A stretch of 64,000 nucleotides of DNA from Psammoneis japonica. Its lineage: Eukaryota. Positions 9,802 through 47,426 of this stretch are shown piece after piece. The translations under genes were made by a program, and so were the position numbers. The DNA is taken from NCBI GenBank assembly GCA_008632985.1, contig QPGO01000143.1, forward strand, positions 62,001 through 126,000, given 5' to 3'. Positions within the stretch are counted from its first letter, which is position 1; each line of letters starts with the position of its first letter. The notes beneath the pieces were generated by a model, which searched no databases, was not told where the DNA came from, and saw only the letters and a program-made list of their open reading frames with translations.

Positions 9802-10905
9802 TCACATCGTTTTCGACTTTGCTCCGTTCACATCATTGTTAAGACTTTTTCGAGCCTTGTGTTCGACCCACTTGATAACGAGCCGGTGGGTCACCATGAT
9901 AGCCGTTACTCCAATCACAATCAATGCCACGGGGGGAACCTTTTGAAAGCCTGCGACCCATACAATGTGGAAAATCACTCCAAGAACTAGCCAATGAATG
10001 ACGTAAAAGGCTGTAATGTTTTGCCCCCAAAATAGGAATCGCCGCGCGAAAAAATCGGGAATCCGAGCGGCCCAATAGTATTCCCAAGCCCACAACCAAC
10101 AAAGGATAAGTCCAGTGATCCAGAGCACGCCAATTGTGCCATTCCGATGATAGGCTTCCTCCTCCAACAGTATCTCGGGGCCAAACAGTCTTAGGAGTGT
10201 AGACGCAACAATCAATACAATACCGAATTTGGCGGCATCTTCAAATACTGTTCTTCTCTTTTCCTCGGATGCGGCAAGCTTCAAATTGGTTCCAAGGACC
10301 ATACCAAATACAGCATAGGATAAAAAGGGAAACACGGACAAGTCCGCATCCACACCGGACCAAAAGATTATAGACAAAATCCGGTCTCCAATAAAACTGT
10401 CCGTGGTAAAACCCCAAAGCCAATAGGTCGCCACGGCAACGGCAAGCCCAACCAATACGCGAAATTGTTGCGAGCATGGTTGCAGGAATCCCAAAATCAT
10501 GAATTCTACCGCCGCCACTTGAAGAGTGTCGGTAAAGAAAAGATGCTCGAGTGGGTCGAACGCCTCGTGCTGTTGCAGTCTTCCGGTTTTTAAAAGAATA
10601 TACGTCGGAAGCGATATTCTCAGGGCATTCAGGGCATATCCAAAACACAAGAGCTTGGTCCCCTGAAGCACCGCTTGAGAGGCGCTGATACGTTTCGAGG
10701 AAAGACCAAACGATGCTCCCATCAAGAAATGATATACCGGTGCCGTCAAGTAGCGCCAAACGTCAAAGATTTGATGCCAAATATCCAAATTGACGCCCAA
10801 GGTTCCGAATTCGGCATCGCCCAAATGAAAGACAACGTGCCCCGCGACCATAAACACAACGCCCGCACCTCGAGCCAAGTCAAACGATGCGATCCGTTTC
10901 TTCAT
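9802..10905 (-). CDS. DUF1624 / HGSNAT-catalytic-domain-like multi-pass membrane acyltransferase
   Basis: RIASFDLARGAGVVFMVAGH N-terminal motif, APVYHFLMG, DTLQ, FPFLSYAVFG, many hydrophobic helices. Intronless. Confidence 0.75.
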   Translation of the reverse strand: MKKRIASFDLARGAGVVFMVAGHVVFHLGDAEFGTLGVNLDIWHQIFDVWRYLTAPVYHFLMGASFGLSSKRISASQAVLQGTKLLCFGYALNALRISLPTYILLKTGRLQQHEAFDPLEHLFFTDTLQVAAVEFMILGFLQPCSQQFRVLVGLAVAVATYWLWGFTTDSFIGDRILSIIFWSGVDADLSVFPFLSYAVFGMVLGTNLKLAASEEKRRTVFEDAAKFGIVLIVASTLLRLFGPEILLEEEAYHRNGTIGVLWITGLILCWLWAWEYYWAARIPDFFARRFLFWGQNITAFYVIHWLVLGVIFHIVWVAGFQKVPPVALIVIGVTAIMVTHRLVIKWVEHKARKSLNNDVNGAKSKTM

Positions 10906-11748: not shown

Positions 11749-12186
11749 ATGAAGTTCTCTACTACGGTTCTCGTTTCAGTCATGTTGCTTCTTGCCTCCA
11801 ATGTTGGAAGCACTGTTGCAAAACCCGTGACGGCGTCGGATGGTGCAGTCAGAAGGCGTGCCTATGAAGATAGCAGCAGTTCCGATGTCGTTGAACACAG
11901 TGACAGCGGCAGCAGTGGCGGTTACATGGGCGACAGCAGCAGCAGTGGCGGTTACATGGGCGACAGCAGCAGTGAGGAGGAGTCAAAGTCATCACACAGT
12001 GGCTACTACTACAGCAGCAGCGGTAGCAAGGGCAAGGGCAAGGGTGGTAGCTCGAGCAAGAGTAAGGGCAAGGGCAGCAGTAAGAGCAAGAGCAAGGGTA
12101 AGGGTAGCTACTATGGAAGTGCCGATGGCTATGAGAAAGAAAGTAGAATGAAGGACGGCAGTGGCTCCAAGAAGAGCTTCAAATAA
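11749..12186 (+). CDS. Secreted Ser/Gly/Lys/Tyr-rich silaffin/cingulin-like protein, MKFS-RRR-FK family
   Basis: Signal peptide MKFSTTVLVSVMLLLASNVGSTVA, VRRRAY, acidic GDSSSSGGYM repeats, SKGKGKGGSSSKSKGKG, GYYY/GSYYG, ends KKSFK*. Probable 5'UTR intron 11624-11724 (GTAAGT…CCAG). Confidence 0.75.
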   Translation: MKFSTTVLVSVMLLLASNVGSTVAKPVTASDGAVRRRAYEDSSSSDVVEHSDSGSSGGYMGDSSSSGGYMGDSSSEEESKSSHSGYYYSSSGSKGKGKGGSSSKSKGKGSSKSKSKGKGSYYGSADGYEKESRMKDGSGSKKSFK

Positions 12187-12384
12187 TTTTCCCAAACACC
12201 TCATATTGCTGAAGGACGTTAAAAGCCGTCCTTCTTTTGGCAATCGAGATCCACTTTTCTTCATACCCTACCCAATAAACTTATCATGCCATTACATGTT
12301 TTTCATTTCGTTGCAAAAAGACTTGATTCTCGCGTCTCAGTGGGTGTAGCATTTGCGCACGTCAATGAACAGATAACTCTGACA

Positions 12385-13150
12385 AGGGCGACAGCAGCAG
12401 CAGCAGTAGTGACGGCGACATGAGGGACAGCAGCAGTGAGGAGGAGTCAAAGCCATCACACAGTGGCCGCTACAGCAGCAGCAGCAGTGCCGTCCTTCAT
12501 GCTACTTTCTTTCTCGTGGCCATTGCCACTTCCATGGCAGCTGCCCTTGCCCTTGCCCTTGCTGCGCTTGCTCGAGCTGCCACCCTTGCCCTTGCCACTG
12601 CTGCTGCAGTGGCCACTGTGTGATGGCTTTGACTCGGGCGCCAACTCCTCACAGATTGACTCGGTCCTGTCACAGACTGACCATTTTTGTGGAATCTTGC
12701 TCAGTCACACCGCTGCCTTTCATCATCCCAAACTGGAGTTTGCCAAAAGTCTCACTTCCTGCCCCCCAACCTGAACCCCAAACCCCAACCCTGACAGTGC
12801 AAAACTGTTTTTTCTAAATGCTGGGATGCAGAAGTGGCGAAGTGGTGTGTGTTGATTCAGTCATGGGTTCCTGTTTTTGACTTGATCTGTGACGGGCACA
12901 AGCCAATCTGTCAGGGGTGTTTTTTCCTCCAGGAAGAGCTTCAAATGATTTTTCCAAGCTTCTGTTGAAAACATCGCTGAAGGATGTTAAAAGCTGTCCT
13001 TCTTTTGGCAATCGAGACCCACTTTTCTTCATGCCCCACCCCCAACAAACCAGTCGCACAGTGCACATTTTTCATTTCATTGCAAAAAAGACTGGATTCT
13101 CGTGTCTCTCCAGGTGCTGCACATGCAAACATCAATGAACAGAGCACTCT
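12385..13150. pseudogene. Rearranged, hypermutated tandem copy of the 11749..12186 gene
   Basis: 12385-12487 is a direct copy of the mid-CDS, about 12487-12635 is an inverted copy of the 3' CDS, and about 12926-13150 is a direct copy of the stop codon and 3'UTR. TA has been replaced by TG or CA. Confidence 0.85.
12645..12917. mobile_element. Degenerate MITE-like insertion inside the pseudogene
   Basis: Imperfect TIRs cctcacagattgactcggtcctgtcacaga / tctgtgacgggcacaagccaatctgtcagg. It separates two parts of the gene copy. Confidence 0.55.
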
Positions 13151-16100
13151 TGCTTGTGATTTTTTAACCGAAAGCAATGGCACTAAAAATGAAGCACTGG
13201 ACGACAATGTGGGAGCAAACACTGAACAGTCATTTTTTTGCCCATTGCGCACAACACAAAAACAGCTGAGTGCCATCATCACGGTTTGATGAGATGCCCA
13301 TTGAAAAGAAATGATCCACAATTGTGGTTGCTTCCTCGAAACAGAGCACAACAAATGCTGTGTCTGTCTGCATCACATTCCTGTCTCTGTTGGCATGCCA
13401 TTGTGTTGAGTTTGTGGGCTGGCATCTGGCCTTGTTTGCTCTGCTGGTGACTGCAATGGACACCCACCCCTGTTCTGCCTTTGTGACACCCAGATCTTTG
13501 TCAGACTCCTCCTCTCTGGAAACTGAATCTCAGAAATGTGCTGCTGAGGTGTGCTCTGAGCTCTCTCCACCCGGCACCTTGTGACAGGCACTTTTTGCCA
13601 GCCAGCCAAACTTCTTGTTGAGTTGTCGCCACACAAAAAAGCTGATGGTTGTTTCACATGACTCTGCTGATGCACGCATTTGTGACATGATGTGCAAAAA
13701 GCCCAAACCCAAGAAAGTGCATGTTTTGCAAGATGCAAGCTTGGCTGCATGTTGCCATGCAAGCATCTTGCCAATGACAGATGGAGACCCACACAAAGCA
13801 CTCCAAAAAGGGTGCTGCAGTGTTGATGACATGAGCACCTTCTTTTTGAACCTTGTTGCAACAATTTTTCCACAGATTCTCTCACAACATGTGTGCTGCA
13901 ATGGCCTGTGATTTTCACCACTGCCAAAGAAAATGCCCATGTTGTGTGCTGCACTGTCTGCAAAATGAGCATGCTGCATGATGCACAGAGGCATTGTGGC
14001 CCAGCTTGCTTTCTAAGGAGGTTGTCCTTCAGGGCTCAAAACACTGAAGCGTGCCATGCCAGCTCTTTTGGCATTTGGAAAAAGCAGGGGCAAGTGAAGT
14101 GCCCCACTGTGTTTGCTGCTTTCACAGCCCATTTTTCAAAAATGGTCTCTTGTGTGTGTCTTGCTTTGCAGCCACACATGGGGGCAACAAAAGCGTGCAC
14201 AGCACACGAAGCAACAACCTCCCTCTGTCTTGCTCCAGAACAGCACGCAGCTCCATTTGCCATGTTGTTGCTTCTTGGCTTTCTGACAGAGACAGACAGT
14301 GAAGTTCCCACTCACACTTGCTTGGTGGCATGGGGGAACACACAAAAAAAAAGCTGTTGCAAGCTTCTGTTCCCCATGTGCAGCACAAAGTTGTGCCCTG
14401 GGAAGGTCTTCTTTGACAAGTGTGGAGACCAAAACAAAAGAAATCTGTCTCCAAGCAATCCAAACTGCCCCAACTGATGCTGCCAGCAACCAAGGCAGTG
14501 GCATCATGGTTTGCTTGCAGCTCTTACAAACCAGCTTTTGCTGCTCAGTTGTTGACAAAGAAATGACGAATGAGGAGATGCTGTGTTGAAGGCATGCTTG
14601 GCAAACAGCTGGACAGTGGGCCTGTTTGGCTGCAGCCACAACTCATTCAGTTGTGCTCAGGCAAGCCACTCATGATGAAATTCAAAGGAGGTCAATGTTC
14701 TGCTGAGACAGCTTCTTTGACTTTTTTGCAAATGCATGTGTGTTGCCAGAGACATGCGTGCCTTTTTCCTCTGCACTTTGCTGGAAAAGCAGGTTGCTGG
14801 AATTTGCCTGGGACCCTCTGTCCTCTGTCCAACAAAGCAGTGCTTCCGGCACACTTGAGCTGACCCACCTTTGTGTGGCACTCTTTTGCACATTGTCAAA
14901 ATCTTTTGCTGAGCAGCAAGAAGAGCAGCTCTCATGGTCAACATGTGGTCATGGTGGATGGTGGCAGCACTTGCATGTGTGTGGTGTGTGGACAACGCAA
15001 AAACAAATCATGAAACCCCAAGCTTTTGCTTTGCCATCAGAGAAGCAGCACAGCAAGAGAGTTGAGGCCAGTTTGACAATGTTTGGGGCACAGAAGCAAG
15101 GGTGGAATGACACACTGGCGAGGCAGCAACCCTGCCACAGTGCCAGCCATTTTCTCCAAGTGCTCCTGCTGGGCTCACCAAAGCTTTTAAGAACACCATC
15201 GCAAAGCAGCCACCAGCCACACCATGACTGGCCTTGCTGGAAGTGCTCCTCATGTGACTTGCAGCATCACACCAACTTGGAATCAGGCTGGTTGGGATTG
15301 GGGAGGTGGTGGCAAGTGCCAGCAGGGCAGGGCAGGGACGGACGACAGTTCAAAACATGCGTGGAAACCAACTGTTGCACAGACAGACTGCCACTGTGAA
15401 ACCCGCCCCCGTGTGCCCACTGCCCATCATGATGCTGAAGTGTCAATGCCGACAATGGCAAGAACAACAGTGTTGGTTCCAGGCTGTGATGCTGCTCCAT
15501 CTTCAGCACAAAAGCAGAACACACGCACAACAAGACAAGGCTTCTTCATCATGACAAGCCTCCTCGAAGGTGTCCCAGGAGAGCTCATCCAGAAGATTCT
15601 CATCCTTGCAGCTGATGACACAAAAACATTGCAGTGGTGTGAGCAAACGTGCAGAACCCTGTGTCGAGTGGCCTGCAAATGACATGATGTGGAAGCATCT
15701 TGGCAACTGTGGGGAGTTTAGAGAGGATGTCTGACTGCAGTCCAACCACGGTCATGCTTGTGTGGTGAGTGCATGCAACATGATTCGCAGGGAGCAGAGG
15801 AGGGCAACAAACATGCTCACAGACAAGCTTGGTGTGGTTGGATGGCATGATCTCCTCTTCTTGTTTGTTTCAGCCAACCACTGCCGATTCCAGTTTTGAG
15901 GTGACACCATGCTCTGCACATTGCAGAGAATTCAATTGAGGTTGCGGAGGCCACTGGCTTGCACCCAGTTTTGACAAAATGGAATTTTTGGCATTGTGCT
16001 TGTTGTTGCAGGAGTTAAAAGTGGATCCCAATGGGTTGAAGCATGGTGGTCACTTGTTGACTTTAAATTGTGAACTGGAAACACTGGGTGACAACAATGC

Positions 16101-19100
16101 CCTCCTCTGTGAACGCATCATTTGTCGGCTGCCCCACCATGCTCAAGAAGTCAGCAAAGCCAAGGACCAGCATGAGTGCAAAGGCAATGTTGACATGGCA
16201 GAACTGTGATTGCCAAGAAGGAGGAGTGTGGCATTGTGAGCACATCTGATGACAAAAGTGAGTGAGTGAGACCTGTGGCAATGTGCAAGTGACAGCGGTT
16301 TGGCAATTTGAAGATGACGATGTGATTCAACTGATCATGAAGTTGCGTCACAGTGCTTGGTCTGAGGTCATTGGTGTGTTTTCATGCACAGTGCCAACGT
16401 CTCTGCTCATGCTCATGTTGCATCTTGCCAGTTGCTTTGCTTGAGTCTCCATTGCTTTGAAGCATGAGATTGCTGATTGAGCGACACAACATGGGTGCTG
16501 TTTGAATGTTGCATGTTCCGTTTGCTGTTGCTGCTGACATTTCTGGTCTCCTTTGTTTTAGCTCTGGCCAGAAACCAAGGCAATGAGTGCCACCTCTGCT
16601 GGAATGTGTTGACAGCGCCTGTTGCAAAGAGTGCTGTCAGTGTTGATGAGGATGGCCTTGTGGTGAGTTGGAGTTCAACAAGTCGTTCATCATCCCAAAA
16701 GAAAAGTCACGTTGCAGACAGGGCAATCAAAGCATGTTGCAATCACATCAATTGCTCCACATGGGGGGTCTTGAGGATGCTGTCACTGTGTTGACACTGC
16801 CTGCTTCAATGACTCCATTTGACCCAATCAAGGCAAATGAAATCAAACAATGTGTGCATGGATTTAAAAAAATCCAGTGTGAAGAGTGGTGCTGCAAAAG
16901 TGGTCCTTCTTCATTTGGGTGTCAAAGACATGCAAACACATTCATCACACCCCAGCATGTGAACTGCAGAGCTTGCAAGTGGAGTTCTGTGGGCCCAAGT
17001 CACATGATGGAGTGCTGCCCAAGGCTGGAGCTCATTGGCAGGGGGCTTGCATCCACATGATGCATGTCATGTGCTCTGTGCACTTTTTTGTGGCACTGCT
17101 GCTTGCTGCTGTGATGCTTCATGGTGTGCAATGGAGGTGGCAAGTGAGCTTTGGTCCAGTGCAAATGGGTCCAGCAGGGTGTTGGCTCCTCAATTGGGTG
17201 GATGGAGGCAGGCATGCAGGGGAGGGGGGGGCAAACAAGCAGCAGAGCTGCCAATGCTGGGGCCATGTGGGGTGGTCCAAAAAACTCACAATTAAGATTT
17301 GAAGCAAAGGCCAGGAGTCAGGGCATGGCAGGCACACTCTAACTCCAGGTGGGGTGCTTTTGGAGACATTCTAAAAAAGAGCTTGTCAAAAAAGCAGCAT
17401 CACACAGAGAACAAAGATGTGCATGTAATTTTGCCCCACCACGGGGGCAAAACTTGTCAAAATTGAAGGAGGGCTGGTTCAGGTGCACATGTGATCTGTG
17501 CCGGGTGGACGACTGTCCTTAGAGAAGGGAGAGCTCTGTTGCACAAAATTTTGCAATGGCAAACTTGGGCAGATCTCATCATGCAAGTGAAAGAGCAGCC
17601 TGTCAACACCACCTCCTTTTTTAAAAAAGATGCCATTTGCTCTTTTGTCATTCCTGCCAGCTTGAAGATGCCACTGCCAGCTCTCGACAGTCACTGTCTC
17701 AGAGCAGAGCCACCAAGAGATGTGGCACCACCCCTGGCGGGCAGTGTGTGGGGTGTGGGCTTTTTTTCATGCAGCCAATGCCTCTGCCAATGTGGGTTTG
17801 AGCACTGCAGTGGAGCTGATTTGCCACAAACTTGGCCAGTTTTTGTTGTCATTTTGTGGGGGAGAAAAGCATTTGCTTTGAGGATGATGATCCTCACTCA
17901 TGGAGGGCTTTGAGGATGATGACCCTCACTCACAGAGGGCTGCCCAGACTCAATTGCCAAAGGGAGCAACAACCAACCCAACCTCAAGAAATTTCATTTC
18001 TCACTCTTTTTTCTCACTCTTTGTCCTCTGAACAATGGGGTGCAAGAAGAGCAACAACCAACCAGTGGCACTGAAAAATGCAGCATGAGCTGTCATTCAG
18101 TTTTGCTCTTTTCCTCACTCCCCACACCACAGCTCCAGCCCTTGCACAAAGAAGCTGACCACATTTGTCAACACACACACTGCACTCTTGTGCACAGCCT
18201 TTCCCACGAGGTGTTGGCTGCTTCGCACTTGTTTCTTGGCTTCTTCTGCAGGAGAACATCCTTGATTGGGTGCTCAAGAAATGGAAAATGGGTGTTGCAC
18301 AAAAGGCACAGCAAACAATTGTGGTGATGGGACCGCACACCATGTGGTTTTGGAGCCAAGTTCTTCCCACCCAGTTCCTGATGGGCTTCATTGCTGCAGG
18401 AACTTGTGAGTTTGATGACAATTTTCTCATTTGCATCCTCTTGTCAGCCAAGAAATGTGTGCTCAATGGGTTCTTTGCAAACAAGGCCTCACAGAAAATC
18501 TTCACCTTGATGCCGTCATTTTGCATTGGAGGCTCCTTTGGAGTGAAGGCTGAGACTTGACATCCTCCTCCATTGGACTTGTGGCAGCAATGGATTCTCC
18601 ATGCCAGCCAATCATGCAGATGCTAAAAACTGACGCACAAGGCATGCAAAGGCAACCCTGCTTCAGTTTCAGGTGTCATCTCTGTGGGACATTGACAAAA
18701 GAAGGCACATTGGAGCCAAGTGGTTGCACACAAATGCAGCCCCAGACAACCCCATTTCTTGGCTCAAGACCTTGAGCATCAACCAAGGACAACAATGTGT
18801 TTTGAAGGATCATCCTGCTGGCCTGCCCAGCAGCAAACATGCAGCAACCAGCATTCTGGAGGTGTGGGCCTGAATCCCCTTTTCCCTTCTCATTCTCATG
18901 CTTCACATTGAAGAACAAGAAATCTTGTCTGCTTGACCCATCTGGGGGTCTTTGGTTCCAGATGCTTCTCTTGCTCTGATGCCAAGGCCCAGCAGAGTGG
19001 CAACGCATTTCTGCAGAATGGCACTGACAATGTTGTGCTGAGCATTTTCCAATGTGAAGCCATGGGGCATTGTTGTGACCAGCTCTGTTTGAAGTTTCCA

Positions 19101-21141
19101 ATCAACAGCCTCTGGTGAGCTTGTTTCTAAGATGTCTGAGATTTCTGTGCAAAAGTGTGGTGCATGAGAGATGCACTTGTCAAAGATTTCCTGCTGGTTG
19201 AAGACAGAAGATGGTGTGCTCTTGTTTCTGCTGCCAGTGAACCCAGCTGTCTTCCTGGCCAGTGTTGGCAACTGTGAATGCCAAAGGTGTTGGAAGGTTG
19301 TTGAATCTCCTGCAGTCATCACACTTTTGTTTTTTTGCTCCTTGTTTCTGAACAAAAGCCAAAGAATTTCAATGCAAAAAAGCTTGTTTCCCAGGGATGC
19401 CTCAACAATTGCTTCCTTCATTTCTTTCATTCCTGTCAACACCATCCCATTGTTCCTGAAACACTGCTGTGACAATGGCTTGTTGGCAAGATTCAGCTCC
19501 ACCAGACAATCGGCAAGCTCTTTTTGTGTTTTTTGTTCCATCCACACATCTTTGAATGTGTGCTCTGCTGCTTCCTTAAAGTCATGTTTTTGACAAAGTC
19601 TCCAACAGCTGGAAAATGACAACAATGACAACAACACCATCTCCCTCCTTTTTTCTTGTTTCAGCGACCCTGGGTGTGTTTTGTGCAACTTGTGCATGCT
19701 GCACCCACCTTGCCAACATTTCTTGGCCTGTCCATCATCAGGGATTGATGACCTTCTCCTGCATGTGTTGCGAAGTCCACTTGGAAAGACACCAACAGGT
19801 GCAGCACGGTGCTTTTCACAAGTTGATTGATTGCAAGGATCACTCAAATGCAGTGAAGCCATTGCCAGTGCATGCAACAACATGTCCACATTTGTTGCCA
19901 GCGCTGACAAGGTGATCATGATGAGCCATGTTGGATTTAGAGAAGAGGAGCTCAACGGCATTCGTGGCCTCTGGCTGAGGCTGCCTCCTTCAAAAAGATG
20001 GTGCCAACACTTTGTTTTGTGTGCTTGCTTGGTCTTGGTGCCAATGCCTGCTGGTTGTTGTGCATTTCCATCAACCTCAATTAATTTGGTGCCACCTTGC
20101 ACCACTTGTTGCCTGCCAAACTGCCAAACCAGCATCTTCCTTTAATGTGCAATGTGCCTTTGCTCATTTCATGGGCTTGTCCACATTGTTCATTGAGATT
20201 GCTGCAGAGCTGCTGACAAAATGGGAATCATGGAATTGTGCTCAGGATTTCAGAGCAAAATCTTTGCAACAACCTCAAAGGGACACCGCGGCCTTGCAAT
20301 TTCCCCAACACAGCAATTTGGCTCAGATTCAGCAGTGGGCAAAGGAAGTGAGGGATTTGGCACCCATGGTTGATGGCCAATGACCCCTCCTTGAAGCACT
20401 TGAAGGCCACAAGCTGTCAAAGAGAGTGCACAGTGGAGCAAACAGAAGTTGCACACTGGCTCTGCAGCATGCTGCAAGTGGCAGATGTGAAGTGTTGGAG
20501 ATGCATGTCATTGCCTTGTTGGTGGCCATGGCAATGATTGGTCAGATTTTCTTGTTCCTCTCTCCCAAAAAGCATCTTGCAAGGTCTCCAGCAGTTTCAG
20601 AATGTGACATTTCATTGTGTGCTCTTCCAGCTGTTGAGGCTCTTTTGGCGCAACTGCAACAGAAGATTTCACTCCCTTTGGCAATGCCAAATCAGAGGCA
20701 ATGCACTGCATGTCTTGTGGTGGTGCAGTTGTGCCAGGTGGATGAACATTGAGATCACCAGCACTGCAGCAGTGAAGAGATGCCTTTCTGTTGGTCCACA
20801 TTGCTTCCTGGAGATCTGCAAAATTGTCAAAAGGCCTTTTGACCTTGACCTTCTTCTCAAAGTTGTCACTGGCACAGACTGTCACACCACACCACATCTG
20901 CTGCCATGGTGGTCCAATGGAGTCCAGCATGGTGTGGCAGAAAAGTGAATTTCTGCTTCATCTTTGACACAAACTTAACAACACATGACAACAATGGTCT
21001 CTGCCATTTGATTCTTTGTGGATGATGATGCACAAAACCAAAACCACTCATCACTCTGTTTGTCTCATCTCTTGGCTTCAAAAAGGCCCCAAAACCAGAG
21101 CATCTGTGTGTCTGAAAGACCACCCCAACTTTTAAAATTTC

Positions 21142-21143
<2 letters not shown>

Positions 21144-21183
<40 letters not shown>

Positions 21184-21265
21184 CGTCGTCGCTGTTGTCA
21201 TCACTGTTGTCGCTGTTGTTGTCGCTGTTGTCGCTGTTGTTGTCGCTGTTGTTGTTGCTGTTGTC
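21144..21265. repeat. (TTG)n / (GTC,GCT,GTT)n trinucleotide microsatellite
   Basis: About 13 pure TTG units followed by degenerate gtcgctgtt units. Would read as poly-Asn/Asp/Ser on the minus strand. Confidence 0.9.
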
Positions 21266-24200
21266 TACAAGTGCATGGATGAAATGAATTTTTTTCAAAA
21301 TTCACAGAAAGGAAGGGCTTCACTGGCATTGGTGACACCAAATTGCACCACACAGTGTCAGTGGGTGGTGCTGCATCCTTGAACCATGGGGCACCACAAA
21401 CTGAGTTGGCATGTTTTTTTTTTCTTCTTTGGCATTCAATCAGTGGCAGTGGCTCATGACACAACAAAGTTGGTGGTCATGCACAGAGTCAAAAGACAAA
21501 ACAGATGCCTGATTGACACAAGGCCAACCACACCCCCCACAGGAGGAGGCTTCTCTTGCCAGCATGCTGTCACCCACTCTCTGCTTGGGCTCATCCACCA
21601 CAGCATTCCAAGTGTTCAAGTTTTTCATCTGTTCATGGCAAGAGAGACACCATGTTGCACTTTCAATGTTCCTGCTGTCTTGTGCTCTGTTTGGCCCATC
21701 ATTGCACGCAACAGTCTTGTTGGTCTTCCACTTCTTGTTGTGATGATTGCCTGTGTCATTTCAAACAAGCACTCAATTTTGCCAGGGGGGAAAGTTTGTC
21801 AACCAGTTAAGATGATGTCACTTGTGAACTCAACAACACACTTGGATGAGTGGAGTGCAGGCAGGGACCAGCCCTGATGCACCAACACAACCACAGTCTT
21901 TTTTTCACCATGCAGGGCAGCAACAAAAAGTTTCTTTGCAAAGTGCAAGCAACTGCATTTGTCTTTCATTGTCCAATGCTTCCAAAAAGAGCTGAGCTGC
22001 AACCACAGTGGGGCCAACAGGGAGCTGGGAGTTTTGACCATCAGATTGTGCAAAGCAACTCTTGTTGTGCTGAGGGTCTCCAGCCATTGTGAAGTTTCTT
22101 CATTGAACACTTCTGCATTTGACAAAACTCTGACTGACTTTTGCATTCACTGCCACTGTCAAATCTGCAAAAAGACAACAACAGTCCATGTTTTGTGTGT
22201 GCCAGCTTTTTGTTGACTTCTGACCACCACTGCACTGCTGTTCATGGTGCACACTGGATGTTGTTGCTGCTGCTCAGTGGCCATTTTAGAAAAGTCTCAG
22301 AAAAGCCCCTGAAGTCATGACAGAGCTGCAAGGTGCAAGTGCAGCTTGCCAGAGCCATCGCTGGATTGCTTGCTGAGCTGCAGCTTTGTTCTTTGTGCAA
22401 TGCTCCCAAGCCAATTGGAGAAGCATCAGATGCAAGCACCACATGGGGTTGCCAAAGATTGTGCCCAACTCTGAGCCACCCCCACTTGCCTTGTGTGCCA
22501 CACATTGTGCTGCCACATTTGCAAGGCTTTTTGAGAGTGGAAAAGTTGGGCTGAAGGGGCTGGTTGCAACAGGATCAATCAGCACAAGAAAAGGGGGATG
22601 CAACCCCACACCAACCATTGCCATGCAAGGCAGCTCCATTGTGCACGTTTTCACAAGGACAGAGACACTTGTTTGCAGCCACCAGCTGACCTTGGGTCCA
22701 ATGAATCTGCAGCACATCCCAGAGCCAATTTTGGGATCTGGAAGAATCATCACTGCATCAACTTTCAAAAAAGTCAGCCAGTGTGCCACCAGCAAGACCA
22801 CCTAAGTCTTGAGTGGCAACACAAAAGTTTGGCAGGCTCTTGAGTCAGAAGAATTTCACACCCATGTCTCTGTCATGGTCATCACTGCTGTTTTGTTGCC
22901 CCCCATTGTCACCACCCATGTGACACCACCTCCATCAACCCTGCTGCTGCCACTGCTTTTACCACCACAGCCATTGGCTTGCTGTCTCCCTTGGAACTTG
23001 TCAGCCAAGATGCGGCTGCCTTGGTTGACAGCCACAGTTTTGAGTGGGCTGGGTCAACTGGGAAAATGCTCCATTTCAGGCAGTGCTGAAGCTTGGTTGG
23101 TTCCGTCAAGAAGCTGTTGCTGTTGGTCAGGTTGCTCAAATGTGGGAAGCCCTGCTGCACATTGTGAGAACAAAAAACACTGCAGAGTGCACTTTAAATG
23201 AGTCTGCCTGCCATGTTGTGGCTTGCTGTCTCATGAGCAAAATGGTTGCTGCAAAAGATTGGATTTGAAGAAAGAGCCATTCGGCTCATGCCATGTGATG
23301 TGATCTGGAGTTGCAAAAGGCTGGAGTGCTGGCCCAGTCATGCTGCTGGCCTGGATGCAAGAAAGAAATGGACAGATGTGACAATGAAAAAAAGATTGCA
23401 AACCAAGCAACACAATGTGACAAGACATGAGTGTTTGCTGCAAAAAAGATGTGAGCTGTGTCTCAGCTCATGCCAATCTGAGAGGTTTGCCAGACATGGT
23501 CTTGAAAGACTTGAAGACAAGCAATCTGACAGCTCCCACACTCTCTTCTCAGAGATGGAGCTGCCCCTCTTTTGGAGGTTTGCTTGCTCCAGTTTCCAGC
23601 AACAACAGTGGAATTGGCAAACAAAAACAGCACACAAAAGCAACAGTTGACAACAGATCCTCGAGCTCATTTTGATGTCAGTGTTCAAATTGTTGCCAGC
23701 AAAATCACACTGCAACCCAAGTCAAGAGAACTTGGCTGGTGGGCTCACCTTGATGGTGAGATTCTTGTGGCTGACAATCTACAACATGGAACGAGCCAAC
23801 TGTGGCAGCTGCAAAGAGTCAGAGTGTTTCGGCCATGTTGTCAGGCACACAGCAAGCAAACTGACAAACAAGAGTGGAAAGAAATGTGCTCCAACCTGTT
23901 CTCTGGGTTGAGCAGCGAGTTTCACATTTGTGACTGAGTCAGTCATCAGGATCATCAAATGCTTCCTGCCCATTGTTTTGCACTCACAACACCCATGTGC
24001 ATCCAAGGAGGATCCAGTCCCTTGACTGGTGTGCATTTGCTGGAGAGAAAGCTTTGGAGCGAGTGTGTTTGTCTGCAGTGCTGTCAGACTCGCTCCATGG
24101 TGTTGACAATGCTGGCAGATGATGAGTCAGGCCAAGCAAGTGCATGATCAGTGGGTCACATGAGAGTGTCACAGAACAGCAAACTGCGGCACTTTGTGCT

Positions 24201-24899
24201 TGGGCTGCGCTTTGGCTCCATCTGCTGTGTGTTGTGTTCGTGCTCTAAACTTGGCATCTTTTGGGGTTGCCACCACACATGATGTTTGGTTGACATGAAG
24301 CAACTGAAGCTGGACTGCCTCCAATCAAAATCACATGCAACCAATCGGACCAGAAGCCCACACCTTTTCTTGCTCAGAAGCACTGCCCGCCAGGGGGTGC
24401 TTCGACTCAAGCGTGTGGGGGCTCTCAACCCCGCTGTGAGTGCTCCTCAGTGCGCAGGTTCAAACCATCCATTTGACTCTTTGATGTGTCTTTCTTGCTC
24501 TTTCTGTGTGCAATCAGATGCAGACTATTTTTCAATCTTGTTGGGCCAAGCAATTGCAGATTTGGCCACAGTCTCTGTCATTTTCAAAGTTTGTTTTGCA
24601 CACTGTGTGATCAAATCCTTGCTGCAGCATTGTTTTCCTCCAATCCACTGCCCACCAAGATGAAATGAGATGTTCCATAACCAAGAAGCGTTCTGCACCT
24701 GACAAGATTGGTGGCACTCATCTTGCATTTGATGAAAGATGGCAATGTGGAACGAAGCAAAGAAAGGGAAAAGTGAAAAGAGGTTTGTCACAAAGCCTTT
24801 AACTTATGGGCACTGCGCAATCCCAGCAGTCCGCGCCGTAGACTTCTACGTGTCTCTCACTGTCGCGTCATCGTTGGGGGTTGGGGGCCATCATGGGCT

Positions 24900-24984: not shown

Positions 24985-25510
24985 ATGGATCAAGTGCGTC
25001 GCGAGGTCAGGTGTCTCAGGCACAGGGAGTCTCGCGTAGACGGACTGATGACAAGCCCGCTGCATGTCAAGACTTCACAAGACTTTGTTCTCCCTCGCTG
25101 ATGCTGCCATGCAATTCCTGTTGAAGTAAAGTATTTATTCATCTTTTAATGCTATTTTTCTGAGACAAAACATTCATGCTACCGGTACATTGCATGATGT
25201 TGGACGTGCACTACTGGTAGTTCAACCTTCCACAGAGATTCTGAGTATTCCCATTCAGTGTCCATCCCCGGAAGTCACTTAAAAATGAAGATATGAAATA
25301 TGAAATGGAAATGTTCAAACGTACGCCGGTGAGGCTCGGCTCCTCATCACCATTCCCAATGCACCCTACAATAACGACACGAGATGAAAAGGTTCTGTTC
25401 AAACAGAGTCTGGTCTCGGCTCCCTCTGCCTGTCCACAAAACAAACAACAAGTTATACGAAACGAAAAAAGAGTCCTCTCCCTCTTTGGTTGTGCCATTG
25501 TCACACGATT

Positions 25511-27276
25511 TTACTTTTCCCAGTATGCAGCGTATCGGGTTTTGCCATTGGCAACAGCACCCGTGACAGCGCCAGTGGTCCAACCGTTACTGATCCTATT
25601 ATTCCAGTGGGTTTGGTATCCTCCACCGGTGAGCCGTGCTTGGCAAAGACACTAGGCATGGCCGAGGAAGCCCAGATTGCAGAGTAGTAAATCGATCCGT
25701 TGTGCTCGTAGCTGTTGAGGTATATAAGACGACGGCCAGCTGCCTTGTTTGCATTAAAGTTGGCTTGATACTGTGCCGAGCTTTGAAAGGACTTGGCGTG
25801 CCAACTACCGATGGAACCCTTGGTGTACACGGCCGCGTATACAAGAACCCCATTGACAGACGTTGGAGAGATGACTCGGGGACGCCAACCGGCTTTTGTC
25901 CAAGCGTTAAAGATGGCCTGGTGAGCCGCCGCAGACTTGTCGTGGTATGTTAGTGTTTGGGGTACGGATGCGCCCTTTTGGAAGATTCCAACGTAGCGCA
26001 CATTGTTACCGACATTGTAGGTGTCGATGTGGACCAGTTCAAAACCCTGTGCACCATAGGCAATCTTCTTTTGGCTCAACTGTGCCTTGGTCAGACTGCG
26101 GTGAGAAAACCAGGACACACTTGGATTCTTGTTGGGATGGTATACGACGTTGAAAACCGCCTTGCCATCTCGGCCAAAGCCATCGTTCCAGTCCATGCGG
26201 TAGCCGCAAGTCGATGCTGCGTTGAAGTCTTCTTGAAACTTGTTGTCCGCAAGACCGTGACGGGCATACTCTCCCCAACCAGGACGAACTAGCGGGACTT
26301 TGTACAAAGTACCGGCAACGAAGAACTGATTTCCTGGAATACCGCAAATGCGGGGAACGCGGTTCTTGCCCTTGATGTAGCCACCGGCGGGTATAATCGG
26401 ATCAGAGAGATCGTCTGGAACAGCAACCTCAAAATGAAGGTGGTCTCCACTAGCACAACCAATGTCGCTTTCAATGCCAATGAACTGTCCAACAGACACC
26501 TTGTCTCCGACCGACAGTCCGGCATTGACACTGGCACTGTTCTGTGCGAGATGGCTGTACTTGGTCCACTCGCCGTTCTTGTGGGCAATCCATACGTAGT
26601 TATTGTTCTTGCAGCCGCCATTCACATTGTGTGAGTCTTCAATGAACTTGATCGTGCCACTCTGTGCTGCGACGATCTCGTAGGGTCCGCCCGACTTACC
26701 GGACATATCAATTCGATTCTTTGGGGTGTGAGTAAGGTGGTCACGATTCACCCTGACAGTGACACCGGGCTGGTAGGGAATGGCATAAAGTCCCTTCGAA
26801 GGGGGGCGGTGGCGAGGACCCCTTATGACGTTCCCGAGAAGCGGGTTCTCGCGGTCGATTTTACGAATAGGTAGCTCTTTCAGTTGGCCAGATAAACTGT
26901 CAGATTCATCCTTCCATGTCCAAGTTAAAAAAGTGTGCGAGTTCAACGGAAACAAATGAATGAGCGAGTGAGTCAACCAGGGAAGAGCTCTAAAGAAGCT
27001 CACACCCAAGCGCTGCAGTACTGTACTTGCGAATGATAGACGGTACTTACCAGAAAATCTAGGTTGCCTTCATTTGCTTTCTCGATATCAAATGTCACGT
27101 CACGCTGTGGATTGGCATAAAAAGAGGCTGTTAGTACAGCAGGGGTTGTTTGGTCATGGTTGCGCCACGCTCAACCCAGACGAGAAGCTCACCTTCCGAA
27201 GCCCTTCTGCATCTTCCGCTGCGGTAGAAGCGGTGAAGAGGAAGATCGTGATTGTCAATGCTGCAATCGTCTTCAT
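25511..27276 (-). CDS. Secreted M23 metallopeptidase with C-terminal bacterial tandem repeats (BTRD1/polyglycine-hydrolase-like); 2 introns, frameshift near 25630
   Basis: Signal MKTIAALTITIFLFTASTAA; introns 27192-27105 and 27050-26911. M23 motifs HTPKNRID, KYSHL, GDKVSVGQFIG, GDHLHFEV. Five repeats of about 50 aa such as WHAKSFQSSAQYQANFNANKAAGRRLIYLNSY…YSAIW; the last repeat ends …TRYAAYWEK* in a shifted frame. Confidence 0.85.
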
Positions 27277-41262: not shown

Positions 41263-41444
41263 TGAATGAGATAGGCACATGTACTCTATGGCCGAGTGTG
41301 CCCTCTCTGATGTGTGTACATTAACTAACGCATTAGACATTCAAGAAGCCGTTAGAAGTCAGTTCCGATCAGCGATTGCACTGATCGGGTCTCTTCTCGG
41401 TTCTCTCACAACTTTTGTCAAGTCATCTCAAGCTAGATCTTGCA
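41263..41444 (+). repeat. 5' LTR
   Basis: tgaatgag…tcttgca; 15 mismatches to the 3' LTR by manual alignment. Confidence 0.95.
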
Positions 41445-41890
41445 CTGCAATTGCAGTCGTTGTTGTGGCTTGTTCATTGCATTGTCAACTTTATGACAAC
41501 GCGAAGAGTGTCATCGAGAAGAGAGAAAATTTGTTTGCGAGCTCGAGCAGAAAATTTCATTCGAAGTAGATCAGAATCGCAGTGCAATTGCACTCGTGAA
41601 ATTGGCGATTCGGAGCAGCGGTTGTTTGAACTCGAAGCTCGTGTTGCCACCATTGAATTCGTCATTGTTTGATTGTTGATTGTTCTCGTTGTGTGGATCA
41701 ACTGGGAACGCCTTGTTTTGTTTGTCTTTTGTGGATTGTTGATTGTTTGATCGCTGAAATTGTTCATCGCCATGTGTCAAGAAGCCTTGGAGAAAGCCTG
41801 TGTTGAGCATGAGACCAAATTCGTGGACTCTGAATTGCAGGAGGTGAAGCTCACTCAAACCTTTTTGATTGTGGCACTAAACTTTCAAAA

Positions 41891-42952
41891 ATGTGTCCTG
41901 TTTTCACAGGAGAGCATGGAATTGAATCATTGTTGCATGTGGAGGACAGGTTCCGGAAGGTGGCAAGACAGCTGGATTGTGATGCCGGAACAGAGTTGTT
42001 TGATGCTTTCCAGGATTGTCTCCAAGGTGCTGTGGAGGTGAAATGGCAGAACATTGCTGCGGGTGTCCAACAGAATCAACGGACGGCAGCTTGATTTGAT
42101 CAGGCTGTCTTGGCCTGTCATCCACGCTGCGTGAAACTGACAGCTCGTGACACAATGAAGATGCATTTGCCTGCTTGCAAAAAGCCTTGCTCAGCAGAAT
42201 CTGAAACTCACATTGATCGCATGGAAACATTGTTCCATTGTGCTGGCCGTTTGCCTGGAGCCGTTCCTGAACTTACAGAGCAGGAGCAGAAAAATGTCAT
42301 CTTTTGTGCCTTCCCTTTGACCTGGCAGCAGTCCTGCATTCGTGCGGGCAAGAACCTTGTCACGGATTCTATGGCAGACATCCAAGCCTGCATGAGCAAC
42401 GAGAAGGTGTTCGCCAATGGTCAAGACAACAAGAAACGCAAGTCCAACAATGGCAATGGAGGGAACTCCAGCAACAAAAAGGGCAGCCGTGACAAGAAGG
42501 ACAACAAGGGCCAACCGAAAGCAAATGATCCATGTCCGGTCCCGTGGCACCATGGAAGGCACACATGGGGCCAGTGTTGTGACAACCCAAACAATCCTGA
42601 CTGTCGTGGGCCTCAGAACCGTGGCGGTCGAGGAGGAGGCCGTGGCGGTGGAGGTCGTGGCGGAGGTCGTTTCCAAGGAGGCCGTGGTCAAGGCCATGGA
42701 GGCGGTGGATGCTTTGGTGGTCATGGCAACCAGAACCAAGGAGGTCGTGGTGCCCATCATAACAACAACAATGGACATCAGAACAACAATGGCAACCAAG
42801 GTGGTGGTCAACATTGTTGTGGTGAAAACAACAACCATGGAGGCCAAGGACAGGCCAACGGATGTGCTGCTCAAGCAGACAATGTGAACAATGACAACCA
42901 GGCTCGAGAAGCTTCTCGTGGTGATGTGCACCATTTTGACATGATCGGATGA
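41891..42952 (+). pseudogene. Gypsy gag relic (start approximate)
   Basis: Zn-knuckle-like CPVPWHHGRHTWGQC and RGG/Asn/Gly-rich tail; in-frame stop at about 42092. Confidence 0.7.
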
Positions 42953-43274
42953 GGCCCTCCAAGATGCGGAGGTGTGGTGAGGTTTCAGCCAGATGGGCAG
43001 TTTCCTCGGCAGTTCTGAGAAGAAGGAGCTGAGTGCTCCAGAGCTGAATGCTCCCAATTGCCTGTGAAAGAAGCATTTGTTGATGAAAATGATTGTGTTT
43101 TGCCTGAATGAAATGATGAATGTTTTGCTTTTGATTGTTTTGAAAATCCTGACGAATTGTTGCCTGTTGAATTTGAAAATGCTGCAGAAAATTACATGAA
43201 TGAAGAGGGGGTGTGTTTGATCAAGACGCATTTGAACACAACATTCCTCTCCCCAAAATGAACTTGCAAGTCTC

Positions 43275-46200
43275 GTGCACCGCGTTGGTCCCATCTACAC
43301 TGCTTGTTGCAAAATCAATCCAACAGATGAGTCGAGTCGAGTGATGCGTGTTTTGTTAGATTTGGGTGGTTTTCACACTGTGATCTGTCTCAAGTTTCAC
43401 CTCGAGGAGCCGTGCCATCTGTTGATGAACATGGAGTCCGAGCTTTTCAAACCATGGCAGGTCCTTTCCAATCGGGTCATTGGGTGGCCTTAAACTGGGA
43501 GGATTGACGGCTGTGTGGCTCACGCATTCGATGCTCCGTGTGCGCATGACATCATTTTGGGTCAAGATTTCTTGGACAAGATTGGTCTCAACCTGAGCTA
43601 CGATGCAAGGATGCTGCGATGGCTGGACCGTGTGATCCCAATGAAGGAACCTCGTCATTGGTCCAAATCCTGCAATTGGCATGTGGCTTTAGACCGAATG
43701 GATGAATTTGATGAAGATTGCAAAGACGAGTCGGGCTGTGGGTGCGACGACGGATGTGACACCTGCACGCTCGACACCAAGCATGAAGCAACGAATCCAG
43801 TGGAAGTGGTTCGGAACTTGGACCATCTCACGGAAGAACAAAAGAAGAAGCTGTCAGCGGTGTTGGAAAAATGTTCAACTTTGTTTGACGGAACGTTGGG
43901 GCACTGTCCTCATGAAAAGGTGCACCTTGAAGTGGACGAAAATGCTGTTCCACATCACTCAAAACTGTTTCCTGTTGCTCGAGTTAATGAAGAAGCGCTC
44001 AAAAAGGAATTGAAGCATTCAGTGAATCTCGGCACACTTCGACCATGTGGACCTGCGGAATGGGCAGCCGGTGCCTTTGTTGCTCCAAAGAAGGACGGAC
44101 GAGTGCGATGGGCATCCGATTTTTGGGAGCTCAACAAGGTCCTCAAACAGAAAGTGTGTCCTTTGCCAGTTGTTCAAGATGTGCTGCAGTGGAGAGCGGG
44201 CTACAAATTCTTCACGAAACTGGATCTCACTGTGCTCTACTGCAATTTGGAGCTGGACGATGAAAGCAAGGAGCTCGCTGCGATTGCAACTCCGCACGGG
44301 AAATTCCAGCATTGTCGCATGGCCATGGGATTAAAGCCAGCTCCAGATGTTGCTCAGTCCATTGTTGAAAAGATTCCACATGGTTTGGATGTTGAAACTT
44401 ACATTGATGACATTGGCGCGTTTGACACTGACTTTGATTGCCATCTCTCTTGTCTTGACAAGGTGCTGCATCATCTCAAGGAGAATGGTTTGAAAGTCAA
44501 TCCATCAAAATGCGAGTGGTGTGTTCAAGAAACCAATTTTCCAGGGCATTGGCTTGCTCCAACTGGTGTTAAACCATGGAAAAAGAAGGTCGAGGCGATC
44601 CTGCGAATGCAACCTCCACGGAACACTACACAGCTCCGATCGTTTCTCCGTGCAGTGACCTGCTGTCGCAACATTGTGGCCTCGCCGTTCTCACCTGCTT
44701 GCACCTCTGACTGAATTGACAGGCAAGAGTCAGTTCCAATGGACAGAATCATGTCAGAAAGCATTCGAGGAGATGAAGGCAGTGATCACGGCAGAAGCGT
44801 TGATGGCCTGCCCTAACCACAACCCACCTTTCCATGTCTGCACCGATGCATCAGACTGCCAGATGGGTGCCGCTGTCATTCAAGATGGCAAACCTGTGGC
44901 GCACTGGTCTAAGAAGCTCTCGGCGGCTCAACGCAGCTGTTCAACAATGGAGAAGGAACTCCTGGCCGTCGTCATGTGCTTCAAGGAATTTCACTCAATG
45001 TTGCTCGGTGCTGAAATCACTGTTCACACTGATCACAAAAACCTCACCTTTCGCACTTTGAATGTGCAGCACGTCCTTTGTTGGTGACTGTTCCTCAAAG
45101 ATTTTGCACCTGCATTTGCGCATGTCGAAGGCAAGGACAACGTGCTTGCCGACTGTTTTTCTTGTCCACCACGCATGGATCTGCCTTCGGAGGGAAAGAG
45201 CCTTGGGCTGAGCAGCAAACGCAAAGGAAAAATTGTTCATTTTGAAAAGTTGGATTCCAGGGAACTGAGCAGGGCCGAGGAAGAGGAAGATTTGGAGTTG
45301 GGCGCTTGCAGGTTCAAATGTTGCCGTGCTCCTGTTGATCCTTCTGATGAGTCTCACACCGCCTTTTCCTCTCTGCTTGACGAGCCCAAATTGTTTGAGT
45401 GCTTTTTGAATTGCCCGACACTGGACGAAATGCAGAATCCCACTGAGACACCAAGGATGCAACAGTTCCAGTTCGAAGACCTCCAACTGAACCAGCAAAG
45501 ACAACAAAATCCGCAGCAGTTTGTGGTCAAGATTGTGAACCATCATCCCCTGATTTGTTGTCGTTTGCATCTGAATGATCCACCTGGAGCCTGGAAAATT
45601 TGCGTTCTTGCTGCGTTGTTGCCGGATGTCATTGCGTGGCATTGTTGTGCATTGGGCCATTGTGGAGTCGTGCGATTGCATGAAAGTGTTTGGACTCACA
45701 TGTGTCATCCTGCATTGCGTCGACGTTGTAATGAATTTGTTTGCGACACATGTCAACGATTTAAACAACTGGGTCCTGGACATGGAGAATTGCCTCAACG
45801 TCAAGCGCCATCAGCTCCATGGATGGAAGCAGCAGTTGATCTCATTGGACCGTGGAAAATGCCGATTCAAGATCAAGAGATTGAATTTAGCACTCTCACT
45901 TGCGTTGATGCTGTCACTGGATTGACTGAACTCGTGCGCACTGACAACAAAACTTCTCAGCATGTGACCAACAAGTTTCGCAATCTTTGGTCAGCTCGTT
46001 GTCCCAGACTGAATCGATGCATCCATGACAATGGTGGAGAATTCATTGGTTGGGAATTTCAAATGCCACTAAATCAAGCGGGCATTGCTGATGCACCGAC
46101 GACATCTCGAAATCCTGCAGCCAACTCCATTTGTGAGCGAATGCACCAGACGGTGGCCAACATCTTGTGCACTGTGGTTGTCGCCAACCCACCTTTGAAT

Positions 46201-46600
46201 GTTCAACAGGCTGAGTAGATTGTGGACGATGACCTTGCTGCAGCCTCTTGTGCTTTGCGATGCTCCCACTCAAGGTCTGTGGGTGTTTCAAGTGGAGCTC
46301 CAGTGTTTCAGCGTGATGTGATTTTGGACCTGCCTGTTGTTTCCGACCTTGCTGCAATGCAAGCCAACCGACAAGTGTTGATCGACGAGAACCTGCGACG
46401 ACAGAATGCGAAGCGCCATTCCTGTGATTATCTGGTTGGTCAAGATGCGTTGGTCAAGTCGGTGGATCCTTCAAAGTTGGAAGAACGAGCCCATGGTCCG
46501 TTTCGAATTGTGCAAGTCCACGCCAACGGGACTGTTTCAGTGCTGTGAGCACCGCACGTCATTGAGCGAATTAATGTTCGCCGCGTGGTGCCGCATCGGA
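43275..46600 (+). pseudogene. Gypsy pol relic (protease, RT, RNase H, integrase)
   Basis: VLLDLGG and DIILGQDFL (PR); KKDGRVR, TKLDL, TYIDD (RT); TDASD, EKELLA, TDHKNL (RNase H); H-H-C-C, VDLIGP, HDNGGEF, ERMH, GPF (IN). Carries stops and frameshifts. Confidence 0.9.
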
Positions 46601-46712
46601 GTTGAGGGTTTCTTCCCAACGTCTGGGTTCCCTTCTCCATGCGCATTGGGTTTGAATTTTAGTCAAGTGGTTCCAATGGTGCGCGTGTTCCTTGCGCCAT
46701 GGAAGGGAAGAG

Positions 46713-46894
46713 TGAATGAGACAGGCACATGCACTCTATGGCCGAGTGTGCCCTCTCTGATGTGTGCACACTAAATGATGAATTGGATGTTCAAGAAGCC
46801 GTCAGAAGTCAGTTCCGATCAGCGATTGTGCTGATCGGGTTTCTTCTCGGTTCTCTCACAACTTTTGTCAAGTCATCTCAAGCTAGATCTTGCA
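46713..46894 (+). repeat. 3' LTR
   Basis: Preceded by the PPT and followed by TSD CTGGT. Confidence 0.95.
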
Positions 46895-47426
46895 CTGGTG
46901 CTCCTAAAGTCACTGACAGCACTACATAGAGAATAGTCTCTAGAGCTACAGCAGCCAGACAAATCCACTGGTAGAACATTGGCTCCCTAGAGTAGAATTT
47001 GTAGTCTGGTCCTCTCTAGAATACAAGGCGCTATGTATGCTGCGGCTTTTTTGAACGCGCCGAAGTGAGCAGCAGAGGAATGACCAACCTGGCAACATGT
47101 ATCCATTGTATTCAATGGTACAGTGACTGGCTTCCGAGACTAGAGGGCTTACTACTACTTGTGCAACAAATGCTGTAAGCTAAAAACAAAGCATTGGACG
47201 CTACAAAATTTCAGGCGATAGCAGCTGATTCTTGCTAGAATGAAAGCTTCGCACCCGATCGAGCCAACTGTCCGTTCATGGCCTATCATCAAGGAAAATT
47301 CTACTAGATTTCAATCAAAAAATAATTTGACAAAACAAATTACAACAAACACAGCACTTGTCGAGACCAACGTTATAATAACTTGTGTTTTGTTTTCATA
47401 TTACAACAACAACAACTCCTCTCTCA

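Follow-up and report, generated by a model that had tools for sequence, protein, structure and literature searches.

TpA is lost from this diatom genome in sharply bounded blocks. In a 764-kb sample the loss was indifferent to the presence of a twin sequence and kept out of long open reading frames (ORFs), and homology pairing alone fails to explain the pattern. The locus described here, from Psammoneis japonica, is one instance of this genome-wide pattern. Here, a tandem duplication of the 3' 458 bp of a gene produced an intact left-hand gene followed by a right-hand half that lacks a promoter. This half has since acquired a MITE and undergone a partial inversion, and most of its TpA has turned into CpA/TpG and most of its CpG into TpG/CpA. 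Judging from composition and substitution patterns, we consider it likely that an A-to-G mutator specific for TpA, and biased to TAY, acts on silent and probably CG-methylated blocks, with intact genes being shielded. All positions refer to the window, i.e., the whole 64,000-nucleotide stretch that was analysed, unless another locus is named.

Anatomy of the parent gene and its broken copy

The copy begins at 12382, immediately after the 3' flank of the parent. The initial annotation of the window had placed the functional gene a few hundred bp away. The copy covers the parent's 3' 458 bp (11924-12381), without promoter, start or signal peptide, in the order forward piece, inverted piece, MITE, forward piece (Table 1). 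The part with the Cys/His residues proved to be the inverted one (12491-12635, minus strand), and a second forward SHSG stretch, in piece A, had been overlooked. Likewise, the copy does not abut the depleted domain 2, as had been proposed, but is itself its left edge (HMM edge at 12503). Pieces A and B overlap by ~45 parent bases and have common non-TA differences from the parent, which indicates their descent from one copy.

Table 1. Coordinates of the parent gene, the copy, the adjoining depleted DNA and an in-window control
Feature	Positions	Strand	Remarks
Intact parent ORF, 145 aa	11749..12186	+	Silaffin-like by composition
Parent side of the tandemly duplicated 458-bp unit	11924..12381	+	24 TAs
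Parent 3' flank	12187..12381	+	AATAAA at 12274; 9 TAs kept, TA ratio 0.54
Copy piece A	12382..12490	+	Parent 11924-12024; hit lightly, the 2 remaining TAs being in contexts normally erased
Copy piece B, inverted	12491..12635	-	Parent 11980-12163; bears the Tyr>Cys/His changes
MITE, ~290 bp, imperfect inverted ends	12637..12926		1 TA left
Copy piece C	12927..13150	+	Parent 12165-12380; ORF end, TAA>TGA, 3' UTR; 1 TA left (TTAA)
Domain 2, TpA- and CpG-depleted	12504..24799		TA ratio 0.04-0.05, CG ratio 0.14 beyond 13150
DNA downstream of the copy, stripped	13151..15200		Reduced to 5 TAs in 2050 bp; matches only itself (non-exhaustive search)
Gypsy-type element (RT, integrase), in-window control	41263..46897	+	Left LTR keeps 6-7 TAs that are CA/TG in the right LTR

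The MITE belongs to a family with at least 24 matches in the genome. A 9-bp target-site duplication, which we take to be the rule for Mutator-like MITE families, was found at four of the nine loci tested (9/9, 9/9, 8/9 and 8/9 positions), while four other loci gave 7/9, 6/9, 5/9 and 3/9. The window copy scored 2/9, and its left flank is rearranged: on the right the parent sequence resumes at 12165, on the left the duplication is absent and the MITE end joins inverted parent DNA. The MITE thus appears to have inserted into the copy before an inversion that would have begun at its left end. A short telomere-like CCCTAA run at 12770-12805 is intact in TA-rich members of the family (L007, L008) and eroded to CCCCAA/CCTGA here.

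A locus made up of low-complexity, inverted and repeated pieces is prone to misassembly, and run X1, with which the assembly was compared, may be the same sample as the window source. One X1 contig nevertheless spans 11943-12719, crossing three junctions with 0 differences, and another spans 12798-14800. Moreover, copy and parent differ at 10% of the sites other than TpA and CpG. We therefore give an assembly artefact practically no chance.

The parent protein has a hydrophobic N-terminus that looks like a signal peptide by eye, followed by a body of 31% Ser, 18% Gly, 14% Lys and 7% Tyr. A pentalysine cluster, defined after PMC5501833 as five non-adjacent Lys in 12-14 aa, was present in two overlapping windows (residues 94-106 and 96-108). 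In being secreted-looking, rich in Ser/Lys/Gly/Tyr and endowed with such a cluster, the protein resembles the silaffins, cingulins and silaffin-like proteins as these are outlined in PMC5501833 and PMC9650480. It differs from them in that it contained no RXL cleavage site and no K-[S/G]-[S/G]-K (KXXK) repeat, and no homolog was found. No Pfam family was assigned to it, no ortholog was recovered among 3,677 candidates or in successive homolog searches (0/231 and 0 matches), and the best Atlas score of 0.76 is a lead at most. Its description as silaffin-like hence refers to composition only.

The 5' part of the parent is single in the genome. A match on contig C6 was considered as an outgroup and rejected, being a different Ser/Lys- and Pro-rich ORF with only 57 bp of common low-complexity DNA. 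This ORF (L005:1500-2400, G000:C6), which runs from a Ser/Lys-rich part into a long Pro/Thr repeat region, is silaffin-like in its own right.

A weak hint of parent expression came from a single study. Contigs of run X2, the kind of which was guessed, cover 11774-12290 at a word depth of 151-204 and end ~10 bases past the AATAAA, as a transcriptome would give. The same run gave no cover over piece C and its flanks, and a further run, X3, gave none at all; neither was counted as evidence. Among the MITE-bearing contigs of X2, the two that were listed extend into loci with intact TAs (L011 and L008/L020).

Substitutions between parent and copy and their direction

In pieces B and C, 13 of the 17 aligned parent TpAs are CA (9) or TG (4) in the copy, with two kept and two changed otherwise; piece A was excluded from this count. 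The reverse was never seen, none of the 48 parent CA/TG being TA in the copy (binomial p=2.4e-4). Expressed per base, 13/34 positions changed at TpA vs. 14/160 transitions at other A/T (Fisher p=6e-5). CpG was affected as well, with 8 of the 12 parent CpGs converted to TG/CA, and the remaining sites differed at 30/295 (~10%). As to the TAs of piece A, one became CG, one was kept, one is GA and one was misaligned.

The amino acid changes given in the initial annotation (SHSGYYYSSS>SHSGHCSSS, GSYYGS>GSCHGS and GYEKES>GHEKES) were all present in the sequence, as was the stop change TAA>TGA at 12184/12946. The change in the 3' UTR was also recovered, the copy having been quoted one C short. The further claim that the parent keeps all its TAs is unprovable without an outgroup; the parent unit does show a TA ratio of 0.80, against a mean of 0.59 in normal DNA and 0.06 in the copy. 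Three of the TAs kept in the copy are informative for loss in the parent, which keeps all three (no ortholog was found).

Two internal outgroups supported the direction from TA to CA/TG. The second Tyr codon is TAC in both the parent and piece A, and TGC in piece B. When the window MITE was compared with four TA-rich copies of its family, 15/17, 16/18, 12/14 and 10/13 of their TAs were CA/TG, with 0 changes in reverse. An ancestral TA-poor Cys/His version, from which the parent would have gained its TAs, could be excluded directly by an ortholog, of which none was found. Such an origin is very improbable given that piece A sides with the parent against piece B, that the MITE within the copy has undergone the same one-way loss, and that it is the copy's TA ratio that is the outlier.

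Stripped blocks and their edges

We have extended the analysis to 764 kb from six contigs, i.e., 0.8% of the genome (91 Mb, 597 contigs). TpA content was bimodal, with 37% of the 500-bp bins showing a TA observed/expected value below 0.2. The CpG ratio was 0.32 in these stripped bins vs. 0.98 in normal DNA, and CpG loss started at the same edges as TpA loss. Domain 2 is not one transposable element (TE); it consists mostly of low-copy or unmatched DNA with short repeat fragments. Its left edge lies 317 bp past the parent stop. The TAs surviving deep in blocks are mostly YTAR (367/589 vs. 2,423/13,977 in normal DNA). Those at 12407, 12471 and 12503 are non-YTAR, and three such survivors in 12382-12510, vs. 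five in the next 12 kb (Poisson p=2.5e-5), indicate that the loss tapers off within the copy's first 125 bp.

The position of the edges followed the genes. All 65 normal segments contained an ORF of at least 150 codons, and the longest ORF-free normal run was 2,865 bp. Taking ORFs as a proxy for genes, and distances uncorrected for chance, the median distance from an edge to an ORF of at least 150 codons was 352 bp (n=75). Only 4 of 91 edges fell inside an ORF of at least 200 codons, and, likewise uncorrected, the median distance was 622 bp for 3' ends and 375 bp for 5' ends. Edges that keep clear of ORFs fit spreading that is stopped by genes, and equally a default loss from which genes escape.

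In the light of these observations we consider the following scheme likely. The blocks would be silent, CG-methylated chromatin, in which alone an A-to-G mutator would work; the best candidate is an adenine deaminase that acts on DNA. An expressed gene, as the parent presumably is, would be shielded together with a margin of a few hundred bases. Such shielding would set the block edge past the parent stop and produce the fading across piece A. The copy would have been hit because it is dead and lies beyond that edge, on the silent side, and not for being a copy. With its graded edge, the interval 12.38-12.51 kb is an exact place at which chromatin can be set against mutation. The CpG loss at block edges fits the CG-methylated TE islands of diatoms, which carry H3K9me/H3K27me3 (PMC9998398). 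For Phaeodactylum, with its DNMT5, the portion of that work available to us describes methylation and silencing, not TpA mutation, whereas the present data are sequence only.

Some features of the window deserve mention on their own. Between X1 and the window, nine listed differences were counted in 2 kb of the stripped 12798-14800 vs. two in 1,140 bp upstream; five of the nine toggle CpG, a hint of ongoing CpG decay. A 522-codon ORF at 25501-27069 (minus strand) combines a peptidase M23 domain with four BTRD1 repeats, an architecture of bacterial appearance; the short piece of normal DNA on which it lies has a stripped block on either side. Other genes encode a bHLH-PAS protein (52838-54112, minus), an amiloride-sensitive sodium channel-like protein (33050-34618, plus) and an HGSNAT-like acyltransferase (9802-10905, minus).

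Duplication as a possible trigger

That homology pairing alone does not explain the asymmetry had already been argued in the initial annotation, and the repeats bore this out: near-identical or age-matched twins were often one-sided or both spared, and apparently single-copy DNA was stripped. Among the 107 homologous pairs of at least 150 bp in the 764-kb sample, both members were stripped in 45 and both were normal in 25, while 18 pairs were one-sided and 19 intermediate. The 45 fit repeat-induced point mutation (RIP) and a position-based reading alike. Both-normal pairs of 1,031, 1,539 and 2,542 bp at 84-86% identity had 33, 33 and 60 common TAs. Two both-normal pairs were skewed (10 vs. 26 in the 2,542-bp pair and 9 vs. 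2), which shows that partial hits occur.

Silicon-transporter matches numbered 24 in the genome (best E 2e-208), which points to a diatom. Four silicon-transporter genes with 96.5-99.6% identity over 1.36-1.40 kb, two of which may be haplotigs, had TA ratios of 0.47-0.49 and were unhit. One of the four is an island with stripped flanks, as is seen at G000:C264:10046-11413 (L102), where an intact silicon-transporter gene lies TA-normal, with margins of ~300-450 bp, inside stripped DNA, and a single 1,511-codon open frame with three silicon-transporter domains was found at G000:C38:226311-230342 (L106-L108).

Terminal repeats gave a view of younger pairs. Six direct-repeat pairs 3-7 kb apart were chosen by eye, and five of them were one-sided in TA loss (12/0, 8/0, 6/0, 6/1 and 7/0), with a divergence at other sites of 0.4, 0.7, 5.2, 1.6 and 0.0%, respectively; in the sixth pair neither repeat contained a TA. 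Between the repeats lie RT and integrase matches in three of the five one-sided cases, and long ORFs of no assigned identity in the other two. As terminal repeats start out identical, their one-sidedness points to a process that is fast and position-dependent. The ~10% divergence between parent and copy then means that the time spent by the parent next to the block greatly exceeds that in which an LTR is stripped. The idea that the 5' LTR is always spared was rejected, since the 5' repeat was spared in three of the five elements and the 3' repeat in two.

Individual cases illustrate the range. In the Gypsy-type element of the window (LTRs at 41263-41447 and 46713-46897), TAs lost in the right LTR are retained in the left one solely within its outer 130 bp. 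At G000:C143:19447-25224 (L045-L046), a 1,707-codon ORF between 304-bp repeats lies in stripped flanks with its interior largely unhit, and 12 of 14 TAs are gone from its right repeat, with the divergence at other sites being 0.4%; this element is possibly the process caught in progress. That so young-looking an element is largely unhit within stripped flanks suggests that location in a block does not lead to immediate stripping. Copies of one small repeat at 3720-4045 vs. 61974-62167 and 61337-61465 differ in that the one in a stripped block lost 11 + 5 TAs, with 0 in reverse. A tandem 170-bp pair in normal DNA (48960-49305, ~75% identity) kept TAs in both members (6 common, 2 + 4 one-sided).

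We have considered a RIP-like process that would detect the duplication and hit both members, the mutated parent alleles being purged by selection so that only the spared haplotype is visible. According to PMC2621366, RIP mutates both copies of repeats above ~400 bp and 80% identity, in agreement with the statement of the initial annotation that both members are typically mutated, and the originally identical 458-bp tandem unit would exceed these limits. RIP also leaks into flanks (PMC7296669), and a heterochromatin-linked Dim2/Dim5 branch acts on single-copy DNA between and adjoining repeats (PMC12543289). The contrast between pairing and chromatin that had been drawn for this locus is thus less sharp than stated, though the chemistry and the sparing of twins still set the present process apart. 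The pairs stripped on both sides would suit such a process. The parent retains seven TAs at which T>C would be silent, its TAA stop and its flank TAs, as would not be expected after hits; a burst-like mutator, however, would remove silent sites along with the whole allele, so these kept sites are not decisive. What speaks against purging is that some spared twins are non-coding and have no obvious reason to need TA (MITE copies, outer parts of LTRs) and that the four near-identical transporter genes show no loss. In addition, a target region of the related process in Bigelowiella natans was single-copy (bioRxiv 10.64898/2026.01.13.699255, as far as its available text goes). Taken together, a RIP-like origin followed by selection is unlikely.

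The possible role of transposable elements

For the loss in the copy, the initial annotation had favored targeting by silenced chromatin spreading from TEs. Silenced chromatin would be consistent with the coincident CpG loss; spreading may or may not be involved, since intact MITEs leave their flanks unmarked and edges follow the gene. We scored 17 of the 24 MITE matches, having dropped five partial and two near-duplicate tandem ones. The three copies with normal DNA on both sides all keep 15-18 TAs, with unmarked flanks, and lend no support to the notion that the MITE alone seeds the mark. By comparison, of the 14 copies that border stripped DNA on one or both sides, 13 were stripped (1-6 TAs kept). 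The three intact copies differ mutually by 3.8-6.7% at other sites, so that they are probably not brand new, even if they may derive from different source elements. At three LTR-type elements with normal flanks the hit zone ended at or inside the terminal repeats. In one element within stripped DNA the hits lay at the right end and, in patches, in the interior, a pattern somewhat in favor of invasion from the flank.

One form of the shielded-gene explanation is that the mark on the copy was seeded by this MITE, or by the nearest TE, and spread from there. The copy does hold a MITE of a repeated family, nearly all relatives with a stripped flank are stripped too, the adjoining 2 kb of apparently single-copy DNA are stripped, hits fade towards the gene, and the element hit at one end looks as if it had been invaded from its flank. 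Against this, the MITE copies in normal DNA are intact despite their mutual divergence, the hit zone at the three normal-flanked elements stops inside the element, and most of domain 2 has no repeat match. We regard seeding at this MITE or its nearest TE as a serious possibility that falls somewhat short of being the favored one. More generally, seeding at TEs with spreading until a gene is met, and a hit by default on all inert DNA, stand about even.

Mutational chemistry

The spectrum was taken from the five one-sided terminal-repeat pairs. A>G changes depended strongly on the preceding base, with 39/114 after T, 1/163 after A, 1/170 after G and 4/139 after C, and C>T at CpG amounted to 6/110. 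The loss was specific for A after T, on both strands. By next base it was 15/26 for TAC, 12/22 for TAT, 6/32 for TAG and 6/34 for TAA, i.e., TAY was lost about threefold as often as TAR. This spectrum suggests an adenine deaminase with a T-A-pyrimidine preference, which resembles U-A-C, the site of TadA-type tRNA deaminases. The genome contains nine PF00383 deaminase matches, including TadA-like ORFs, which are expected in any eukaryote and so are uninformative on the enzyme, and 27 DNA-methylase matches, untyped and equally uninformative.

The common edges of TpA and CpG loss would also be accounted for if A-to-G changes arose by error-prone, polymerase-eta-like repair synthesis at CpG-deamination mismatches in methylated DNA, which would tie the process to such DNA with no targeting enzyme. 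The context of polymerase-eta-like synthesis is A after A or T, whereas A after A was spared here (1/163 vs. 39/114). Besides, young pairs lose TpA far ahead of CpG (34% vs. 5.5%). We thus consider error-prone repair quite unlikely as the source of the TpA loss.

Discussion

A mutator that strips silent blocks and leaves shielded genes alone would have several consequences. The tandem pair with its graded edge and the one-sided LTR pairs argue against duplication as the trigger, and the process would be a one-sided defence that lets gene families grow, unlike RIP. LTR dating and arguments from GC content would go wrong in such diatom genomes. Gene prediction would be misled, as TAA/TAG stops vanish and long false ORFs appear.

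In its widest form, which we put forward tentatively and think may well not hold, the proposal is that this lineage of diatoms has a homology-independent A-to-G DNA editor. Its default would be to erase TpA, with TAY as the best substrate, wherever DNA is silent, which amounts to more than a third of the genome; only gene activity, which shields a gene and a few hundred bases around it, would keep the editor off. A silenced gene copy would then be destroyed in a short evolutionary time with its expressed twin untouched. If so, a natural DNA adenine mutator that leaves a fingerprint in the sequence would exist in a second eukaryotic supergroup. We found no report of TpA hypermutation in diatoms in the literature searched, which left most subscription papers outside.

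RIP acts between mating and meiosis, needs RID/DIM-2 and converts C:G to T:A, mostly CpA>TpA. The diatom process has in common with RIP of Neurospora and other ascomycetes that dinucleotide-specific transitions ruin repeats, and the flank leakage and the heterochromatin-linked branch of RIP (PMC12543289) are further likenesses. The chemistry is opposite, as RIP creates TpA by C>T and the diatom process destroys it: 0/48 parent CA/TG became TA, and 13/17 TA became CA/TG. RIP also mutates both copies, whereas diatom twins are often spared, as with the four unhit silicon-transporter genes and the both-normal pairs of 1,031-2,542 bp at 84-86% identity.

The closest parallel is the TpA>TpG/CpA hypermutation described by Mettrop et al. 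(bioRxiv 10.64898/2026.01.13.699255) in two viral inserts of B. natans, one of them single-copy and silent. In the text available from that preprint, the process is active now, with a ~1,000-fold raised de novo rate, an ADAT2-like deaminase is proposed only, and the authors could not say how targets are chosen. As in B. natans, TpA>TpG/CpA changes occur here on both strands and in presumably silent regions, A>G/T>C is confined to TpA (39/114 vs. 1/163, 1/170 and 4/139), and bounded regions are hit with no twin needed, as the bimodal TA content and the 13151-15200 segment, with one match only in a non-exhaustive search, indicate. The evidence for speed is fossil only, namely a repeat pair in which 12/14 TAs are gone while the other sites diverge by 0.4%. 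The extent differs, since the two viral inserts are partly depleted (ratio 0.45), as against 37% of the sampled 500-bp bins below 0.2. The diatom process further shows a TAY bias, CpG loss and gene-avoiding edges, and it occurs in a diatom rather than a chlorarachniophyte. Its targets are not only viral or foreign, and include LTR elements, MITEs, a dead piece of a host gene with its flank, and unique DNA. A host-gene target widens the range of targets and is no argument against a chemistry common with B. natans, and the diatom process works like the one described there and is probably of its kind.
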